From: an uncultured Gaiellaceae bacterium
GTDB taxonomy: Bacteria > Actinomycetota > Thermoleophilia > Gaiellales > Gaiellaceae
Assembly: GCA_963831285.1 (NCBI GenBank)
Contig: CAWHPO010000003.1
Span: 91,401-155,400 of the forward strand
Length of the DNA: 64,000 nt
Direction: 5' to 3'
The notes below the pieces were generated by a model, which was given only the letters and a program-made list of their open reading frames with translations, did not search any database and was not told the origin of the DNA. Made by a program: the position numbers and the translations under genes. Positions 55,707 through 64,000 of this stretch are shown piece by piece. Every line of letters starts with the position of its first letter. Positions within the stretch are counted from its first letter, which is position 1.

Positions 55707-55779
55707 GCGCCCGTAGCTCAGTGGACAGAGCGGCGGACTTCTAATCCGCGGGTCGGAGGTTCGAATCCTCCCGGGCGCA
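55707..55779 (+). tRNA. tRNA-Arg (anticodon TCT)
   Basis: GCGCCCG TAGCTCAGTGGACAGAGC G GCGGA CTTCTAA TCCGC GGGTC GGAGG TTCGAAT CCTCC CGGGCGC A. Confidence 0.9.
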
Positions 55780-55784
55780 TGGAG

Positions 55785-56681
55785 ATGTCTGCGTACCCGC
55801 AGCCGCTGTCGGAGATGACGGTGGCGGAGGCACGCGCGCGAGAGCGGTCTTCCCTTCGCTCGCGCGTCGCGGTGCCGGAGCCGGTGGACGAGGTCGTGGA
55901 GCTCGCGCTTCCGGGTCCAGGCGGGTCGATCCCTGCGCGCCTGTACCTTCCTGCGGGACGCGCACGACCGGCGCCGGCGTTGGTCTGGTTCCCGGGCGGA
56001 GGGTGGATCCTCGGCTCGCTCGAGGCCGCGGATCTCGTGTGCCGCAAGCTGGCCAACGAGACTCCCTGCGCGGTCGTCGCGGTCCAGTACCGCCTGGCCC
56101 CCGAGCATCGGTTCCCGGCAGCGGTCGACGACTGCGTCGCTGCGACCGCGTGGGTTGCAGAGAATGCGGGCGGGATCGGGCTCGACCCGACCCGGATCGC
56201 GGTGGGCGGAGCGAGCGCAGGAGGGAATCTGGCCGCGGTCGTCGCTCTCCTCGCGCGCGACCGCGGCGGGCCGCGAGCCGCTCTCCAGCTCCTCGTCTAC
56301 CCGCCGACCGATCGTCGGGCGCAGGGCGACACCGCGTTCCCGGGAGCGTTCGACCGTGCCGGCGCGGACTGGTGCTGGTCGCACTACCTCGGCGATGACT
56401 CGGGAGAGGACCTGCGCGCGTCGCCGCTCCGCGCTTCCGACTTTCGCGGGTTGCCGCCCGCCCTCCTGATCGCAGCGGAGCACGACGCATTGCTCGAGGA
56501 GGGCAGGCTCTATGCGGAAACGCTCGCCGCTGCCGGCGTCGAGACCGAGCGCGTCTGCTACGAGGCCGCTCACGGGTTCTTCTCGACTCCCGGCTCGCCC
56601 TCCTCGGAGGCGGCTCGGGCGCGAGCCGTGAGCGCCTTACGCCGCGCCTTCGGCGACGACGTGGCGGGCGGCGCCCAGTAG
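55785..56681 (+). CDS. Alpha/beta hydrolase (HSL-type esterase/lipase)
   Basis: FPGGGW oxyanion motif and GGASAGG nucleophile elbow. The track start at 55779 overlaps the last tRNA base. Confidence 0.75.
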   Translation: MSAYPQPLSEMTVAEARARERSSLRSRVAVPEPVDEVVELALPGPGGSIPARLYLPAGRARPAPALVWFPGGGWILGSLEAADLVCRKLANETPCAVVAVQYRLAPEHRFPAAVDDCVAATAWVAENAGGIGLDPTRIAVGGASAGGNLAAVVALLARDRGGPRAALQLLVYPPTDRRAQGDTAFPGAFDRAGADWCWSHYLGDDSGEDLRASPLRASDFRGLPPALLIAAEHDALLEEGRLYAETLAAAGVETERVCYEAAHGFFSTPGSPSSEAARARAVSALRRAFGDDVAGGAQ

Positions 56682-57513
56682 CGCCGCGTCGTCGATGTGC
56701 TCGGCCGGGGTGAGGACGGCGACGTCCGCTGCGAGCGAGCCGAGCCCCCGCTCCAGGAGATCCCAGGAGCGTGCGATCGACCCCCCCACGACCAGACACG
56801 AGGGTGCGAACGCGGCCACCCACGGCCGCAGGAAGGCGCCGAGGTCGGTGGAGAGGGCGTCGAACGCGTCGCGTGCCCCTTGCTCTCCCGTCCGTGCCCG
56901 GTGCGCGATCTCCACGACCTCGACGCTCTCCGCCCCGTAGCGCGCGAGGAGCGCACGTCGCGAGATTCGCTCTTCGACCGGAGCGTTGCGGAAGAGCACG
57001 CGGTACAGCTCTCCCCCTGGAGGCACGCGCCCTCCGCTGCGCACGATCGAGCCGTGCTCGAGAAACGCCGAGCCGAGCCCGGTCCCGATCGTGACCCCCA
57101 GCGCGCGGTCGTGGCCCCGGGCGGCGCCGGCCCACCACTCGCCGAGGAGGAACGCCTCGGCGTCGTTCAGGAAGCGGACGGCGTGGGGCGGCAGCGAGAG
57201 CGCGGATGCCAGCTCGGCGCGCAGGTCCACGCCGGTAGAGCGCCTCCAGCTTGTGCTCGAGCAGGCAGATGCCGCGGTCGTAGTCGAACGGTCCGGGCAC
57301 GGCGACCCCGGCGGCCTCGACCCGACCGGACCGCGCCGCGGCCACCCCAGCGGCGCGGATGCGGCAAACGAGGTCGTCCCGACCGGCGCCGGCGGTCAGC
57401 TCCTCGCGTACGCGGCTTCCCGAGACGACCGTCGCCGAGCCCAGGGCGACCGTTGCCGCGGACACGTGCGTGCCTCCGAGGTCGAGCGCGACGACCGAGC
57501 CCGCGGCAGTCAC
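56637..57513 (-). CDS. ROK family sugar kinase with an apparent frameshift near 57228-57236
   Basis: The GTG overlaps the upstream TGA. VVALDLGGTHVSAA...GVAVPGPFDY...HKLEALY is followed in the next frame by VDLRAELAS...LNDAEAFLLGEWW...GTGLGSAF. Confidence 0.75.
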
Positions 57514-59200
57514 TTCACGAAGGCCTTGACCACCTTGCATGCCGGGCCGCGCCGCCGTTCCAGCCGATAGCTCCCCGACGCTCGCGGGGATCACGAGCGT
57601 CTCGGCGTAGGACAGCGGATGGACGTCGCCCCGCTCGGTCTCGACCGCCACCTGCTCCCCAGCGACGAGGTTGAGCACGTGGAACCGCCCCTGCGTCTCG
57701 ACGGTGACCTCGCTGTCGAAGTCGAGGCGGTCGACCTCGAAGAAGAGCTCGTCGAGCTCGACCGAGCCCGAGCTCGGCGAATCCCGGGCCGGATGTCTTC
57801 ACGACCGGGTCCTGGACGAGGTCTCGCTGCACGGACTCGCCCCGGCGGGTCGGATCGAGGTTCGCGAAGGCGTGCGCGAGGTGGACGGGTCGCAGCTCTC
57901 CGTCGAGGTTCCGCCGGAGCCAGTCGTAGAAGCGCAGCGTGTACAGGTACGGAGTGGCGCTGATCTCCAGCACGAGATTGCCGGCGCCGCTCGCGTGGGG
58001 TGTTCCAGCCGGGATCAGGTAGAGGCGGTGCTGCTCGGCGGGATGGGCCTGCAGGAAGCGCTCCGGGTCGAACGGGATCCCGGGTCGCTCGGCCGCTTCG
58101 GCCGCTTCGCGGAAGGCGTCGAGGTCGGCGTCCTCGCGAAGACCGAGGAACACCTTCGCCCCCGGTGTCGTGTCCACGACGTAGTAGGTCTCGTGCTGGG
58201 TGTACGGGATACCGAAGACGTCACGCGCGTACTCCTCCGACGGATGGCACTGGATCGACAGGTGACCGCCCTCGAGCGTGTCCAGGTAGTCGAGGCGGAT
58301 CGGGAACGAGGCGCCGAAGCGCGCTGCGACGTCAGGCCCGAGGATCTGCTCGCTCGCCGCGGCCATCAGGAGCTCGAAGCCCACCGCGACGACCTCGTCA
58401 CCCCCGAGCAGGACAACGCTCTCGGGCGTGATCAGCTCGTACGACCAGGCGAGGTTCGGCGCGTCCGTCGCGATCCCGAGCGTGCGCCGCAGCCACTGAC
58501 CGCCCCACGGCCCCGGTAGGAACGTCGGCCGCACGCGGAACGGCCGTTCGGCGAGAGCCTGCAGCGACGCGCGCAGCGCCTCGCCCTCGAGCGAGTGCGG
58601 AGCCTCGGGTCGGACGAGATCGACGTAGCGGTCGATGCGCGGGAGGAGCGCCTGCTCGTGGCGGTCGAGCAGCGGCCAGTCGACGAAGAGGAGCCGCTGC
58701 TCCGAGCCCGCGCTCTCCGACCGGCTGACCGACGTTCCCCGCGATTCCCGCGCGGACGCGCTCGAGGCTCAGCGACTTCGGAATGGCGGCGTACCAGAGG
58801 CGATCGTGCGGTTGGAGGGCGCTGCCGGGGCCGAAGAGGACCGTCGTCCCGTCGTGCGCGGGGAGCTCGTGCTGCGGCCCGTCGACCAGCTCGGCCAGAT
58901 CGCCGTCGAAGATCCGCCCGAAGACGGGATCTCCCGGCAGCACCGCGGTGGCCGTGCGCCGCTCGACCTCGGCCCACGGAGCGAAGAAGTCACGCGCGTC
59001 CTCGAGCAGTACGGCGACGTCGAATGCGGCGAGCGCTGCGCCGAGGGACGTGACGAACGCGTCCCAGGGGAGAGCCGCAGGCCCGTCGATCGCCAGCACG
59101 CCGAGGTCGCTCGCGGGCGATCTCGGCAGCCAGCGGCTCGAGCCCGCTCTCGACTGCGCCTCCCGACGACCGGGTACCGCGGGTTCGCGTCGTAGCTCAT
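57510..59200 (-). pseudogene. Long class I mannose-6-phosphate isomerase-like (cupin) gene interrupted by at least four frameshifts
   Basis: The frame segments read MSYDANPRYPVVG / GAVESGLEPLAAEIARE / DLGVLAIDGPAALPWDAF...GNVGQPVGE / SAGSEQRLLFVDWPLL...RPTFLPGPWGGQWLRR...LSIQCHPSEEYA...GTPHASG...GFAELGLG / ELDELFFEVDRLDFDSEVTVETQGRFHVLNLVAGEQ...IPASVG / SYRLERRRGPACKVVKAFVK*. Confidence 0.6.
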
Positions 59201-60498
59201 CCCGGCGGGCGCAGCAGGAGGTCGATCGTCAGCGCCGCGCTCCAGGAGAAGTCCCGGGCGCCGAGCGGCTCGCCGGTGGTGGGCGCGTAGTACTCGACGA
59301 ACCCGGATCGCGTCACGAGCTCGAGGGTCAGCTCCGCCAGCCGCCGCGCCTCCTCGCCGAGCCCGGCCTGCTCCAGACCCCGAGCGAGAAACCAGTTGAC
59401 GTTGACCCAGACCGGCCCTCGCCAGTAGCGGTACGCGTCGAAGGCGAGGCTCGCCTTCGACGCCGAGGTCACGGGCCAGGGCGCCTCCGGCGACGGCCCG
59501 AAGCGCTCCGGAGCCCAGAGCGCCTCGTCGAAGAGGCGCCGAGCCTGCGCCGAGCTCGGAACGCCCCCGTAGAGGGGAAAGAGCCCGTCGATGGTCTCGC
59601 CGGCCAACTCGTCGCCTCCGTCCTCGACGTACAGCGCTCGCCGCTCGTCCCAGCGCTCCGAGAGCGCCGTTCGGAGCCGCTGCGCGGCGTCGCGTGCGCG
59701 ACGCCCATCGGCGCCGAGCTCGCGCCGGAGCTCGGCCAGATCGTCCTCGGCCGTCGCGAGGATCGAGTTGAACGTCAGGTCGACGAAGACGAACGGCTCG
59801 TCCGCGAGCGAGGCGGGACGGTACTCGTGCTCGCGGAGGTGCTCGACGAGAAAGCGGTACCGCAGGTAGTCGTCGTCCGTCGGTCTCTGCTCGGCCGCCA
59901 CGACGCGCCGGTCCGTGCGCTCGACGGCCGCCGACTCGTCGACCGCGAGCCTCGCGAGGGCCGCGTCGAAGCGAGGCGAGTTGTCGGCCGCCTCCCAGGG
60001 GTGGAGGACGACCACCAGACCGTCCTCGTTCGCGCGGGTCGCGTGCAGCCACCGGTGCCAGCGCTCGAGCGCCGGCACGACCTCTTCGAGGAATCCGATG
60101 TCGGGATCGGCCTCGTGCAGCACCCGCACCGCCGTCGCGAGCACCGGCGGCTGCGTGATCCCGCTCGTCGCGACCGCGGGGGCGCCGTCGCAGGCGGCGG
60201 ACCCCCAGAGCTCGGGGCCGGGGGAGTAGTCGGGATTCGGCACGTGGAAGACGATGTGCGGGACCATTCCGTCCTCCCACTGGCCGAGCAGGAGCGACCG
60301 CACCTCGGCTCGCCCGCGAGCCGGGTCGACGCATGCGAGGCCGATCGCGATCAGCGCCGAGTCCCAGTTCCACTGGTGCGGGTAGAGGTCGCGACCGGGC
60401 CGGACGAAGGAGCCCATGTCGTTGCCGGCCAGGACGGCACGGGCCTTCTCGACCAGCGCTCCTCGATCCCGCGTCCCTCCTGAGCCTCTCCCGCCCAC
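59197..60498 (-). CDS. GH63-family glycoside hydrolase, mannosylglycerate/glucosylglycerate hydrolase-like
   Basis: An intact 433 aa ORF. Motifs LYPHQWNWDSALIA, LHPWEAADNSPRFD and YWRGPVWVNVNWF are typical of the (alpha/alpha)6 barrel of GH63 MgH/GgH enzymes. Confidence 0.7.
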   Translation of the reverse strand: MGGRGSGGTRDRGALVEKARAVLAGNDMGSFVRPGRDLYPHQWNWDSALIAIGLACVDPARGRAEVRSLLLGQWEDGMVPHIVFHVPNPDYSPGPELWGSAACDGAPAVATSGITQPPVLATAVRVLHEADPDIGFLEEVVPALERWHRWLHATRANEDGLVVVLHPWEAADNSPRFDAALARLAVDESAAVERTDRRVVAAEQRPTDDDYLRYRFLVEHLREHEYRPASLADEPFVFVDLTFNSILATAEDDLAELRRELGADGRRARDAAQRLRTALSERWDERRALYVEDGGDELAGETIDGLFPLYGGVPSSAQARRLFDEALWAPERFGPSPEAPWPVTSASKASLAFDAYRYWRGPVWVNVNWFLARGLEQAGLGEEARRLAELTLELVTRSGFVEYYAPTTGEPLGARDFSWSAALTIDLLLRPPG

Positions 60499-60502
60499 TC
60501 GG

Positions 60503-61972
60503 TCAGACCGCGGCCGCGGCGATGGCTACCGGCTCGGGCTCTGCCACGACCGGACGGCCGGTGATCGCGCCGATCATGTCGGCCGTTCGCTGCGCGGCTG
60601 CCGTGGGGCCGAGCCGACCGGTGAGGACTGCTTCCAGCATCGCCTGCAGCTGGGCCGACACGCGGGGATACGACGGCAGCCACGGCCTGCTCGCGGCGGT
60701 CTCGAGGAGCTCCGCCGTGCGAGAGAGGAAGGGTGCGTCGGGCGCGACGAGCTCGATCGCCGAGCGACGGGAGGGCGTGCGGCCGCTCGAGCGCGCGAAG
60801 CGGGCGAGGGCCTCCGGCTCGACGACCCGCTCGAGCAAGCGCATGGCGAGTCCTGGCTGGTCGGCCTGACGGAAGACGGCGAACATCATCCCGCCCGCTA
60901 CGCTCGCCGGAGCGCCTCGGGGCCCGGCGGGCACGTGCGCGAAGCCGAAGTGGTCCCACACCTCGGGGTGAGGAACGCCGAGCGCGTCGGCGAGCGCCTC
61001 GCCTTCGTAGCTTCCGCCGAAGCTCAGCGCCGCGTGCCCCTCGGCGAGCAGGCGGATCGTCTGGTTCCACTCGTACCCGACGACGTGGAGCGGGACGAGC
61101 CCTTCCTCGACGAGGTTCCGGAGGAAACGGAGCGCCTGGGCCGTCGCAGGCGAACCGAGCATGACGCCCTCGGGCCCGAGAACCTGCACGCCGTTCGACG
61201 CCAGGAATGCGATCAGGAAGTAGGCGGTCGCCTCGTGCGCGCGCGAGCCGCCGGGCATGACGATCGGGCTCGGCACGCCCGCGTCCGCGAGCGCCCTCCC
61301 GACCGTTCGGAGATCGGCCCAGGTCCGGGGAGGCTCGAGACCGAGCGCTCCGAGCGCATCGCGCGCGTACCAGAGCCCGGCGACGTCGGCGAACGGCGAG
61401 ACGCCGAAGGTCTTGCCGTCGTACCGGTTCACGCGCACCAGGGGAGCGAGGAAGTCCACCTCGTGCTCGTCGTGGACCCATTGCTCGTTCAGCTCCTCGA
61501 GCGCATAGATGAAGCCGGCAGCGGCGAACTCGGGCGCCCACACGTTGTCGAGAAGTGCGACATCGGGCGCTTGTCCTTCTGCGACCGCGTGCCTGAGCGT
61601 GTGGTGCAGCGAGTGCCCCGGCACCTCGACGACGCTGATCCGGTTGCCTCCGCCCGCGGCCTCCCGAACCATGCGCGCCCACGGTCCTTCCGCCGGGACG
61701 ATCACGCGGATCTCCGGCTGATCGGGTCGGCGGCTCAGCCAGTGCGGGTTGACGAACGAGCCGCGCCGCCGGTGGCGGAGGATCACGCCTTCGTCGGCGA
61801 GCTCCGTCAGCGCACGGGTCACGGGCGTGCGGCTGATCTCGAAGCGGTGGCACAGCTCGTGCTCGGTCGGAAGCCGCTGCTCCAGGCCGTAGCGGCCGCC
61901 GAGGATCTCTTCGAGGAGAAGCGTCTTCAGCTGGAAGTAGAGCGGGATCGGTAGCTGGGGATCGATCTCCAT
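60503..61972 (-). CDS. GntR-family HTH fused to a family-1 extracellular solute-binding (PBP) domain
   Basis: MEIDPQLPIPLYFQLKTLLLEEILGGRYGLEQRLPTEHELCHRFEISRTPVTRALTELADEGVILR (winged-helix GntR) is followed by about 400 aa of sugar-SBP-like sequence with no signal peptide. The RBS GAGGAAG precedes the ATG at 61972. Confidence 0.7.
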   Translation of the reverse strand: MEIDPQLPIPLYFQLKTLLLEEILGGRYGLEQRLPTEHELCHRFEISRTPVTRALTELADEGVILRHRRRGSFVNPHWLSRRPDQPEIRVIVPAEGPWARMVREAAGGGNRISVVEVPGHSLHHTLRHAVAEGQAPDVALLDNVWAPEFAAAGFIYALEELNEQWVHDEHEVDFLAPLVRVNRYDGKTFGVSPFADVAGLWYARDALGALGLEPPRTWADLRTVGRALADAGVPSPIVMPGGSRAHEATAYFLIAFLASNGVQVLGPEGVMLGSPATAQALRFLRNLVEEGLVPLHVVGYEWNQTIRLLAEGHAALSFGGSYEGEALADALGVPHPEVWDHFGFAHVPAGPRGAPASVAGGMMFAVFRQADQPGLAMRLLERVVEPEALARFARSSGRTPSRRSAIELVAPDAPFLSRTAELLETAASRPWLPSYPRVSAQLQAMLEAVLTGRLGPTAAAQRTADMIGAITGRPVVAEPEPVAIAAAAV

Positions 61973-62096
61973 CGCTTCCTCGATCGGTTCGGCACAGGCC
62001 ACTGTAGTAGCGGGGATTATTGCCATGCGAACGTAGCAATTGCTCCCGAGGGTCGCTATGATCGACCGCTCGCAGATCCGGCCAGACAGGGGAACG

Positions 62097-63469
62097 ATGA
62101 GCGACGTCTCGCTCGGGCGGGCACCGACGACGAGCCCGGAATCCGACGCGGAGTTGATCGGACGGGCCAAGGCGGTTCTCGACGCCAACTGGCTCGGCCA
62201 CGCGACGTCCCCGTCGCCGCGGCTGTACCCGCACCAGTGGAGCTGGGACGCCGCCTGCATCGCGATGGGGTACGCCTCCTGGAACCAGGCGAGAGCGGAG
62301 CAGGAGCTGCGGTCGTTGTTCTCCGGGCAGTGGCGGAACGGGTTGCTGCCGCACATCGTCTTCACCGACGGCGCGCGCTACTTTCCGGGCCCCGACTTCT
62401 GGGGCGTCGATCGCTCGCCGGACGCCCCCGGGCAGCCGCGGACCTCCGGGATCGTCCAGCCTCCGATCCACGCCACGGCCGTCTGGCGCGTGTACAGCCG
62501 CGGCGCCGACCGGCAGCGAGCGGCCGTCCTTCCTGGAGGAGCTCTTTCCACGTCTTCGGGCCTGGCACGAGTACCTCTACGCCGAGCGCTGCCGAAACGG
62601 AGACGGTCTCGCCGAGATCTGGCACCCGTGGGAGTCGGGAATGGACAACTCCCCGCTCTGGGACGAGGCGCTCGCCCGGATGTCGCTGGATCCCACCCGC
62701 ATGCCCGAGTACGAGCGCGTCGACGTGCGGGTCGCGGACGCGTCGGAGCGTCCATCCGATGCGGAGTACGACCGCTACGTCTATCTCGTCGGGCTGTTCC
62801 GCCGGCTCGCGTACGAGCCTTCCAGGATCAGAGCCGAGGCGCCGTTCGCGCTGCAGCCCGTTCTCTTCAACTCCCTGCTCGTCCGGTCGAACCGCGATCT
62901 GGCGGAGATCGCACGCGTCGTGGGCGCCGACCCCGCTCCCTTCGAAGCCTGGGCGGAGGCCACGGCCGCCGGCCTGGACGGCCTGTGGGACGAGGAGCAG
63001 GCCCTCTACGTGGACTACGACGTCATCGCCGACGAGCGGGTGGGTGTCGGCACCGCCGCGGGTCTCGCCCCACTATACGCAGGTGTGCCGGCCGCGGAGC
63101 CGGGCGGCGCGGATGGTCGAGCGCCTGGCGGGCTCGCGCGTGCCGGTCGGCGCCTCGGGTTGGGCCGTCACGAGCCTCTCGCCCGACGACCCGGGCTTCC
63201 AGCCGACGCGCTACTGGCGCGGGCCGGTGTGGCCGATCCTGAACTGGGTGCTCGAGCGCGGTCTCGAGCGCTACGGGTACTCGGAGGAGGCCGAGCAGGT
63301 CCGGCAGGCAGTCGTCGAGTTGGGGCGGAGCCAGGGGTTCTGGGAGCACTACGACCCGCTCACGGGGCGCGGTCACGGCGCCGAGCAGTTCGCCTGGACC
63401 GCAGGTCTCGTCCTCGACCTCCTCACCGACGGCGAACCCACCGCGAGGTCGCGGGAGCGGGGACATTGA
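62097..63469 (+). pseudogene. Second GH63-family hydrolase paralogue with two apparent frameshifts (about 62525 and 63100)
   Basis: Segments are MSDVSLG...LYPHQWSWDAACIA...VWRVYSRGADRQRAAV / FLEELFPRLRAWHEYLY...IWHPWESGMDNSPLWD...GLAPLYAGVPAAE / RAARMVERLAG...YWRGPVWPILNWVLERGL... Confidence 0.65.
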
Positions 63470-63649
63470 CTTCGACCGGATTTCTTGTTACACCCGCATG
63501 ACAAATCGTGTGGAGCATCGGATACAGCGCACGGATCGCAGGCACGTTGCGCGCATGCATCCACCGAGCGCGGGGCTCGCAGGACAGTCGTCGGCGTGCG
63601 GTTGCCGCAGGGGCAGCGCATGCCGCCTATCGGCACAGGAGGGACCCCT

Positions 63650-64000
63650 ATGAGCAGTGATCACGACAGCTCGACTGTCGGCTGGGACGACTCGCTGGAC
63701 AGGCGAGACCTACTGGTGCGGGCCGGCGGCGCCGGTGCGCTCCTCGCCCTCGGGGGCATGGCGGGCGCAAGCCGGGCGCTCGCGGGACCGACGCAGAACG
63801 CCGGCAAGGTCACGGCCTTCTTCGGACAGTTCGGCGCGATCGCCGAGCAGGAGGGAATTCGCAAATACGTCTTCAAGGGCTTCAACGGGGACGTCGACCC
63901 CGTCTTCGTACCGATCACCGCGCCGACCCAGTTCGTCGACCGCGTGCGCGCGGAGGCGAAGGCCGGCAAGGGCAACCTCGATCTTCTGATCGGGCTGCAC
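63650..64000 (+). CDS. Sugar ABC transporter substrate-binding protein with a Tat-type signal; 3' end runs off the window
   Basis: Absent from the ORF track because it is open-ended. The RBS AGGAGGGA precedes MSSDHDSSTVGWDDSLDRRDLLVRAGGAGALLALGGMAGASRALAGPTQNAGKVTAFFGQFGAIAEQEGIRKYVFKGF... Confidence 0.6.
   Translation, partial: MSSDHDSSTVGWDDSLDRRDLLVRAGGAGALLALGGMAGASRALAGPTQNAGKVTAFFGQFGAIAEQEGIRKYVFKGFNGDVDPVFVPITAPTQFVDRVRAEAKAGKGNLDLLIGLH

Follow-up and report, generated by a model that had tools for sequence, protein, structure and literature searches.

Mannosylglycerate (MG, known as digeneaside in red algae) and glucosylglycerate (GG, of marine cyanobacteria and actinobacteria) are abundant stress solutes, and to our knowledge their consumption after release has barely been studied. 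What is known of their breakdown comprises two intracellular hydrolases, MgH and GgH, a phosphotransferase system (PTS) route in Escherichia coli and a predicted flavobacterial locus. Here we describe a candidate locus for the use of such solutes, located at the 3' end of a 64,000-nucleotide stretch of DNA (hereafter the window) from an uncultured Gaiellaceae bacterium (assembly GCA_963831285.1, contig CAWHPO010000003.1, positions 91,401 to 155,400), where genes for two GH63 glycoside hydrolases, a phosphomannose isomerase (PMI)-like protein, a ROK-family sugar kinase, the substrate-binding protein (SBP) of an ATP-binding cassette (ABC) importer and a chimeric GntR regulator lie together. A likeness to this locus is offered by mngRAB of E. 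coli, a system dedicated to the uptake and catabolism of 2-O-alpha-mannosyl-D-glycerate under the control of a GntR-family repressor. Mycobacterial GgH has been related to the turnover of endogenous GG that follows nitrogen starvation (PMC5381378), and a 'digeneaside PUL' (polysaccharide utilization locus) has been predicted in 11 isolates of marine Flavobacteriia (Kappelmann et al. 2019, PMC6298971), so that GH63-based mannosylglycerate scavenging is already in print as a prediction.

Sequence comparisons make it reasonably probable that the locus imports and catabolizes exogenous alpha-glycosyl-D-glycerate, be it MG, GG or both, and possibly also mannosylglucosylglycerate (MGG). In the proposed route, a CUT1-type ABC importer made up of an SBP with a signal of the twin-arginine translocation (Tat) type, two permeases and a UgpC/MalK-type ATPase would bring the solute into the cell, where two cytoplasmic GH63 enzymes of the MgH/GgH type would split it into a hexose and D-glycerate. 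The hexose would be converted to fructose-6-phosphate by the ROK kinase and the PMI-like isomerase, acting in either order, and D-glycerate would be oxidised by the D-2-hydroxyacid dehydrogenase whose gene follows that of the ATPase, and/or phosphorylated by a glycerate kinase from another site of the contig. Expression is probably controlled by the divergently encoded GntR-SBP chimera, whose cytoplasmic ligand would be the solute or a product. Mannose is favoured as the hexose because of the PMI-like gene found here and the mannose isomerase found in Rhodobacterales, and glucose because of the affinity of one of the two hydrolases, GH63#2, to GgH. The initial annotation had already proposed a catabolic locus for this kind of solute, a reading that is supported in silico; the substrate and the order of kinase and isomerase are given here as we infer them.

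Two GH63 hydrolases of the MgH/GgH type

GH63#1 matches PF22422 (MGH1-like_GH) along the whole model (1-356/356, E 1.3e-97), and the same is true of the GH63#2 orthologue of a related locus (L003:3262-4710; 1-356/356, E 2.7e-104). The window's own GH63#2 matches PF22422 in pieces (1-88, 123-254 and 248-356), with model positions 89-122 unmatched around the first of its frameshifts. In the PDB, the best match of both paralogues is MgH of Thermus thermophilus (TTHA0978, 2z07; E 3.5e-83 for GH63#1 and 1.6e-98 for the GH63#2 orthologue), followed by GgH of Mycolicibacterium hassiacum (MhGgH). These matches are full-length, whereas YgjK and the trehalases match the C-terminal third alone (E 1e-11 to 1e-15). 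Clustering with YgjK-type or trehalase-like enzymes had been named in the initial annotation as an outcome that would speak against its proposal; by these matches, and by their position in the trees described below, both paralogues fall among enzymes of the MgH/GgH type.

The structural work on MhGgH identified Asp182 and Glu419 as catalytic residues and listed the contacts to the sugar and to glycerate, those to the glycerate carboxylate being Tyr36, Trp40, Tyr88, Arg216 and Tyr375 (Cereija et al. 2019, PMC6608630). The positions of that enzyme checked by alignment include Tyr36, Trp40, Trp42, Asp43, Tyr88, Gln115, Asp182, Arg216, Tyr222, Tyr375, Trp376 and Glu419 (numbering of PMC6608630). 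All of them are kept in 6/6 GH63#2 sequences and, with the exception of Tyr88 (9/10), in 10/10 GH63#1 sequences; H78 is also kept in nine of the ten GH63#1.

The relationships within the family were addressed with an alignment of 97 sequences, from which 59 rows were picked for a careful tree by thinning dense clades; these trees include neither YgjK nor Rubrobacter MgH. They are anchored by the Thermus locus, whose GH63 reaches 974 bits over 420 residues against 2z07, and by Mycobacteriales loci, with an M. flavescens protein at 896 bits against 5ohc. In the careful tree, GH63#2 joins Mycobacteriales GgH (support 98/91), and Thermus MgH joins the second Truepera copy and an ABC-linked clade of Pseudomonadota (100/99). 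GH63#1 forms a long-stemmed clade (100/100) inside a group of Chloroflexota, Deinococcota and others (97/92) in which its sister is not resolved. The quick tree of all 97 rows was concordant, with the join of GH63#2 and GgH flagged as two long branches meeting. From these separate positions it follows that the paralogues are old and do not stem from a recent duplication. Two old paralogues leave room for the use of both MG and GG, or for a stepwise breakdown of MGG.

A second GH63 gene near the ABC-linked copy also occurs in distant loci, in Truepera and Anaerolineales (L058:9292 onward and L024:629 onward), the second copy of Truepera being the one that groups with Thermus MgH. Elsewhere in the Gaiellaceae genome, weak PF22422-like matches were seen at G000:C13:204094-204813 (73 bits) and G000:C4:56639-57130 (56 bits), within open frames of 1004 and 826 codons.

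Importer and proposed hexose and glycerate branches

Contig C3 extends 8.3 kb beyond the 3' end of the window, and that part was included in the analysis (L001). Inspection of the genes downstream of the SBP, recommended in the initial annotation, showed that genes for two permeases, a UgpC/MalK-type ATPase and a D-2-hydroxyacid dehydrogenase come next, in this order. The SBP orthologue has a Pfam match of the SBP_bac_1 type, permease matches are to UgpA/MalF-type models, and the ATPase reaches 404.5 bits against UgpC, with OB_MalK and TOBE_2 in its tail; an SBP_bac_1 protein, two BPD_transp_1-type permeases and a MalK/UgpC-type ATPase together make an importer of the CUT1 type. The dehydrogenase is closest in the PDB to 4hy3, with phosphoglycerate and glyoxylate/glycerate dehydrogenases next, and its gene is kept at the cut edge of the related loci L004-L007. 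On its 3' side (L001:14340-17699) lie an open reading frame (ORF) with no Pfam match, an oxidoreductase of the GFO/IDH/MocA type and a xylose-isomerase-like TIM barrel.

The PMI-like protein has more than 2000 relatives, which NCBI and JGI name class I mannose-6-phosphate isomerase; the orthologues of the window gene measure 561 amino acids, and one protein of 859 amino acids is a fusion of PMI-like and ROK parts. At the sequence level it matches the PMI of Bacillus subtilis (1qwr) with E 3e-9. An AlphaFold model built on an alignment of 24 sequences (pLDDT 81, pTM 0.86) was compared with the same structure by Foldseek, and its C-terminal 330 residues matched 1qwr_A with E 2e-19, probability 1.0 and TMt 0.74, so that in the model the C-terminal part is a type I phosphomannose-isomerase fold. 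The stretches SIQCHP, HETYYV and GTaHA align to motifs of the B. subtilis enzyme and are invariant in the 24 sequences; we take them to hold the Gln/His/Glu/His metal ligands of PMI. The N-terminal part, of about 220 amino acids, is an alpha/beta domain, for whose first 225 residues a search of the ESM Atlas returned only unnamed clusters (scores 0.90-0.91). A canonical PMI was not found in the genome, the PF20511 search giving as its only match elsewhere one of 20.5 bits.

PF00480 (ROK) matches a C-terminal piece of the window kinase and nearly the whole of its intact orthologue (L003:9443-10330, 295 amino acids; model positions 2-292/294). The kinase has no N-terminal helix-turn-helix domain, and its best PDB matches are the glucokinases 3vov and 3vgk. 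A Cys-rich zinc motif, CxCGxxGCxE, is a recognised feature of ROK sugar kinases; in the alignment, the window kinase has no cysteines where the T. thermophilus glucokinase 3vov carries its Cys motif.

Conserved neighbourhoods and alternative substrates

The public loci closest to GH63#1 (65-78% identity) belong to soil metagenome-assembled genomes (MAGs) titled Gaiellaceae, Thermoleophilia or Actinomycetota. The Gaiellales-type gene order was seen in 9 related MAG loci, which argues that the arrangement is not due to chance. Counts across a wider set refer to 80 loci retrieved with GH63#1 (tblastn, E<=1e-10, query cover of at least 50%). Next to GH63, an orthologue of the ATPase is present in 57/80 loci, one of the transporter SBP in 40/80, a LacI-type regulator in 24/80 and the GntR-SBP regulator, at an identity of at least 62%, in 10/80. 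The PMI-like gene is found in 10 of the 80 (8 of Gaiellales type and 2 of Anaerolineales) and ROK in 11, the two genes standing together in both Anaerolineales loci. These genes are mostly arranged as regulator, SBP, two permeases, ATPase and GH63. In the Rhodobacterales version, a D-lyxose/mannose isomerase gene comes after the importer, in some cases together with one for a glycerate 2-kinase. Such an isomerase after GH63 occurs in 6/80 loci, all of Pseudomonadota, two of which carry the only MOFRL glycerate 2-kinases of the set (2/80). A Pfam/NCBIfam check of such neighbourhoods, which covered 38/86 chosen ORFs in six loci, identified in Thalassococcus a Lyx_isomer protein (334 bits), a glycerate 2-kinase-like protein and a PfkB kinase. 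Behind the MgH gene of Thermus lie a permease ORF and an ATPase gene with 50-58% identity to those of the Gaiellaceae locus.

Several observations weigh against the proposed route. The nearest NCBIfam model of both paralogues is the equivalog NF047898, glucosylglycerate hydrolase, whose cut-off of 550 bits is missed by the window's GH63#1 (340.6), by L003 GH63#1 (336.8) and by L003 GH63#2 (382.8). Phe89 is kept in 0/10 GH63#1, and the catalytic loop W-E-S-G-M-D, which is the canonical WESGMD in GH63#2, reads W-E-[G/A/S]-A-D in all ten GH63#1, being one residue shorter with Gly180/M181 altered; with this altered loop and without Phe89, GH63#1 may differ in its substrate. The transporter SBP has no sequence relative in the PDB, and the PMI-like protein belongs to no Pfam or NCBIfam family, both at E<=0.01. 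Orthologous SBP and permease genes accompany ggH in none of the Mycobacteriales loci (0/80), and most loci of Chloroflexota and Deinococcota consist of LacI, ABC and GH63 genes only, with no genes for mannose or glycerate. Finally, no glycerate kinase is encoded in the locus itself; a single Gly_kinase match was obtained, about 94 kb from it, and the genome holds no MOFRL gene.

One alternative is that the GH63 specificity has drifted and that the locus imports and degrades a different, glycerate-free small alpha-glucoside or alpha-mannoside, such as glucosylglycerol, a kojibiose/nigerose-type disaccharide or a mannobiose. The scores below the GgH cut-off, the clade-specific loop deletion of GH63#1, the many ABC-GH63 loci devoid of glycerate genes and the nearness of the regulator's sensor domain to binding proteins for trehalose/maltose and sulfoquinovosyl-glycerol would all fit such a substrate. 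Nevertheless, the MhGgH contacts to the glycerate carboxylate are kept in GH63#2, and also in GH63#1, where only Tyr88 is missing from one sequence out of ten; MhGgH is reported not to cleave glucosylglycerol or glucosylglycolate (PMC6608630). Moreover, glycerate 2-kinase and 2-hydroxyacid dehydrogenase recur in the module, to which the characterised Thermus MgH also belongs. On balance, a glycerate-free glycoside is considered unlikely, although it is the alternative to be taken most seriously.

A second possibility is that the enzymes recycle the cell's own pool of MG or GG and that the transporter only recaptures leaked solute. This is the role of mycobacterial GgH (PMC5381378), to which GH63#2 is sister, and since the genome is 85% complete, genes for synthesis may have escaped assembly. 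However, in this 85%-complete genome no match to MpgS was found, nor one to GpgS above its cut-off (best 39 bits), a search that did not extend to the GT78 single-step MG synthase, and the lack of such matches is a reason to favour scavenging over recycling. Besides, the hydrolases are encoded within an importer operon that includes a secreted SBP, sugar-channelling genes and a dedicated regulator. Recycling is accordingly regarded as improbable, and uptake of exogenous glycosylglycerate is retained as the preferred explanation.

A chimeric GntR-SBP regulator

The regulator combines a GntR domain (PF00392, E 5.9e-17) with a C-terminal part of the SBP_bac_1/SBP_bac_8 type. In the PDB, its residues 1-76 match YvoA, a winged helix of the HutC/YvoA-like type, and residues ~105-472 (~350 of them aligned) match whole transporter sugar SBPs of the MalE type, the highest similarity being to binding proteins for trehalose/maltose and sulfoquinovosyl-glycerol. 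Both parts are present in 118/120 regulator homologues among the matches listed, and automatic pipelines label the family as 'extracellular solute-binding protein' or as a transport protein. The idea that the sensor is a recent copy of the transporter SBP was considered and rejected (E 0.43 between the two). Among 400 sampled genomes of the phylum, fused matches, full or cut by a contig end, were found in about 8 (G228, G293, G007, G095, G189, G133, G254, where the match is split, and G268, which is unpublished and accounts for one of this count); the other matches cover the SBP part only.

GntR regulators are divided into the subfamilies FadR, HutC, MocR, YtrA, AraR, DevA and PlmA. The C-terminal effector domain of the window regulator fits none of these types, and no description of a GntR-SBP architecture was found in the literature searched, which included few subscription journals. 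From its domain composition, the chimera may constitute a new GntR subfamily.

The regulator and GH63#2 are divergently transcribed, and relatives share in the region between the two genes a AGATAACAAAA-type motif together with an inverted copy of it (L003:4711-4812; also in L005, L006, L007 and L009). This inverted motif is a candidate operator in the relatives and is not clearly kept in the corresponding region of the window (61973-62096).

Locus layout and frameshifts

The window corresponds to G000:C3:91401-155400 in an assembly of 2.33 Mb and 17 contigs, with ~71% GC, a completeness of 85% and a contamination of 2.6%. The features of the locus are collected in Table 1.

Table 1. Features of the putative glycosylglycerate locus (window coordinates)
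Feature	Position	Strand	Basis
ROK-family sugar kinase, 291 codons + 1 extra base	56637..57513	-	Pfam ROK, blastx
PMI-like cupin isomerase, 561 aa + 5 extra bases	57510..59200	-	orthologues, PDB, Foldseek
GH63#1, MgH/GgH-type hydrolase, intact, 433 aa	59197..60498	-	PF22422
Chimeric GntR + SBP_bac_1 regulator, 489 aa	60503..61972	-	Pfam, PDB
Divergent intergenic region between regulator and GH63#2, putative promoter/operator	61973..62096	.	sequence
GH63#2, MgH/GgH-type, 456 aa + 2 extra bases	62097..63469	+	PF22422 pieces, blastx
ABC-importer SBP, start in the window, runs to 65014 beyond it	63651..64000	+	translation

The genes and their order agree with the initial annotation. The regulator carries GntR and SBP_bac_1 parts, and GH63#1 is a single intact ORF with a full-length PF22422 match. 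Four nucleotides separate the regulator stop from the GH63#1 start, and the overlaps proposed earlier are present as ATGA at 59197-59200 (GH63#1/PMI-like) and GTGA at 57510-57513 (PMI-like/ROK). The SBP does have a Tat-like N-terminus (RRDLL), its ATG lying at 63651 and not at 63650 as first given. For GH63#2, the ATG at 62097 and the stop at 63467-63469 hold; the continuous frame between them does not, since two single-base insertions interrupt it. Nor are ROK and PMI-like single ORFs as they had been presented, for blastx and short-read contigs place one and five such insertions in them. The suspicion of a dead gene had been raised at that stage for PMI-like only.

These interruptions are reflected in the gene lengths, 877 (3 x 292 + 1), 1691 (3 x 562 + 5) and 1373 (3 x 457 + 2) nucleotides for ROK, PMI-like and GH63#2, which after subtraction of the extra bases yield 291, 561 and 456 amino acids, the PMI-like value being also that of its orthologues. 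Mapping of frames by blastx against stop-to-stop ORFs from ten related loci, with intact orthologues as reference, showed that ROK passes from frame -2 to -3 near 57234, PMI-like from -3 to -1 and then -2 near 58713 and 57772, and GH63#2 from 1 to 2 and then 3 near 62525 and 63090. Both permeases, which lie beyond the window, pass from frame 1 to 2, at ~65620 and ~66490. The orthologues are single frames in L002, L003, L005, L007 and L009, and similar breaks are carried by the related long-read MAG loci L004, L006 and L044. Only single-base insertions occur among the ten shifts of the locus; deletions and stops are absent, and codon-position GC is coding-like throughout the gene pieces.

An independent check was provided by Logan contigs from four soil runs of one study. 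The index search listed 22 runs, none with half of the window's words (best share 0.23). Short-read contigs 99-100% identical to the window omit one base at each of six sites: 57231 (run X3), 57577 and 57760 (X4), 59104 (X2), 59166 (X2 and X4) and 62524 (X3). They account for the shift of ROK, four of those in PMI-like and the first of the two in GH63#2, or 6/8 of the shifts inside the window; a fifth PMI-like shift is inferred near 58713. When the reported base was removed in a script, ROK became one open frame of 326 codons, and removal from PMI-like of the reported bases plus one further base near 58713 gave a frame of 581 codons, the restored frames being comparable in length to the orthologues. 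ORF length was uninformative as a test of the repaired GH63#2, every frame being open in this GC-rich gene.

At the genome level, a 7-state codon-position hidden Markov model, used to find same-strand frame switches with no nearby stop, returned 188 candidate shifts (0.81 per 10 kb), 154 of which (82%) are +1. The candidates are clustered: the densest 10 kb holds 8 (contig C14), and 6 were detected both in the present locus and on C12. Examples of shift-rich regions are C14:6,600-19,500, C12:6,200-15,000 and C1:320,000-326,500, and another candidate +1 shift lies in the GFO/IDH/MocA oxidoreductase, at the window-equivalent position 70424. The assembly is not uniformly bad, given that rpoB is one open frame of 1205 codons. 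The clustered excess of +1 shifts suggests that certain regions of the assembly carry systematic consensus errors.

Because the short-read contigs lack the extra base at 6/8 sites and +1 shifts are common genome-wide, we hold with considerable confidence that the ten shifts are consensus errors and not gene decay; in the living bacterium, the genes of ROK, PMI-like, GH63#2 and both permeases are probably unbroken. Some observations weigh against this conclusion. Each indel call comes from one or two contigs at a depth of ~3x in a single study, an X2 contig spans 57760 with no deletion (12 nucleotides from its aligned end), the contigs did not cover ~58713 and ~63090, and the counts of the hidden Markov model are approximate, the esterase and the second GH63#2 shift having been missed. 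A locus in true decay, with ROK, PMI-like, GH63#2 and the permeases as pseudogenes of this strain, would also fit the density of frameshifts, which number 10 in ~10 kb where the genome averages 0.81 candidates per 10 kb, its place among the densest clusters, the intact rpoB, the four sites with no read check (~58713, ~63090 and both permease sites) and the one contig that agrees with the window at 57760. It is nonetheless very improbable in view of ten insertions with neither deletions nor stops, the near-identical contigs that contradict the window, the genome-wide preponderance of +1 candidates and their clustering in several places, the similar breaks in long-read MAG loci and the coding-like composition of the pieces. 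In agreement with an intact gene, four of the five PMI-like insertions are missing from those contigs and the orthologues are unbroken. If consensus errors are the cause, broken-looking genes elsewhere in the assembly should be read accordingly, as +1 insertion errors mimic pseudogenes.

At the boundary of the locus, an esterase of the LipP1/hormone-sensitive-lipase type (55707-56681, + strand) is convergent with ROK, the 3' ends of the two genes overlapping by 45 nucleotides, whereas ROK and esterase are co-directional in 9/9 related loci. The window esterase is only ~60% identical to the L003 copy, and a tRNA-Arg(TCT) gene abuts its 5' end. These features could stem from a local inversion, from a replacement or from a mis-join at the edge of the locus.

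Comparison with known systems

A wider proposal combines three elements: the SBP-permease-permease-ATPase-GH63 set as a scavenging module shared across phyla, GH63#1 of the Gaiellales-type version, with its shortened loop, as the enzyme that demannosylates MGG before GH63#2 splits the resulting GG, and the GntR-SBP protein as a new class of regulator with a whole MalE-type binding protein as its cytoplasmic sensor. Taken as a whole, this proposal is speculative and we regard it as doubtful. A conserved ABC plus GH63 module, with representatives in Chloroflexota, Deinococcota, actinobacteria of soil and Rhodobacterales of the sea, would imply that solute scavenging is widespread and supply testable marker genes for it, and the chimera would bring a new type of sensor into a very large family of regulators.

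The mngRAB system of E. coli differs from the window locus in its PTS uptake, its GH38 phospho-mannosidase and its GntR regulator of the HutC type, which has no SBP domain. MgH of T. thermophilus (TTHA0978, GH63; PDB 2z07/4wva) shares fold, subfamily and active-site residues with the window enzymes, at 42-43% identity by tblastn. Unlike in the window, no SBP, PMI-like, ROK or GntR-SBP gene was seen next to GH63 in the Thermus locus. MG is also synthesized by Thermus, whose genome is matched by PF09488 in a control search. GgH of M. hassiacum (GH63; PDB 5ohc), at 33-38% identity, is the sister of GH63#2, and the catalytic Asp/Glu and the glycerate residues are alike. For an ABC-linked GH63 version of MG or GG breakdown, or for a PMI-like/ROK branch, no description was found in the literature searched, few subscription journals being among it. 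The flavobacterial PUL is predicted to carry out the same task, namely import of mannosylglycerate, cleavage by GH63 and delivery of glycerate to glycolysis, with a LacI regulator, a TonB-dependent receptor, GH63, an SSS transporter and a glycerate kinase (PMC6298971). The window locus, in contrast, belongs to a Gram-positive soil lineage and relies on an ABC importer, two GH63 genes, PMI-like, ROK, a 2-hydroxyacid dehydrogenase and GntR-SBP. As for the regulator, the nearest parallel is AraR of B. subtilis, which is likewise chimeric in joining a GntR domain to a sugar-binding domain of the LacI/GalR type that resembles periplasmic binding proteins (PMC1950556); the sensor of the window regulator is a complete class-II MalE/SBP_bac_1 protein of the transporter type, as opposed to the class-I domain of LacI type in AraR.

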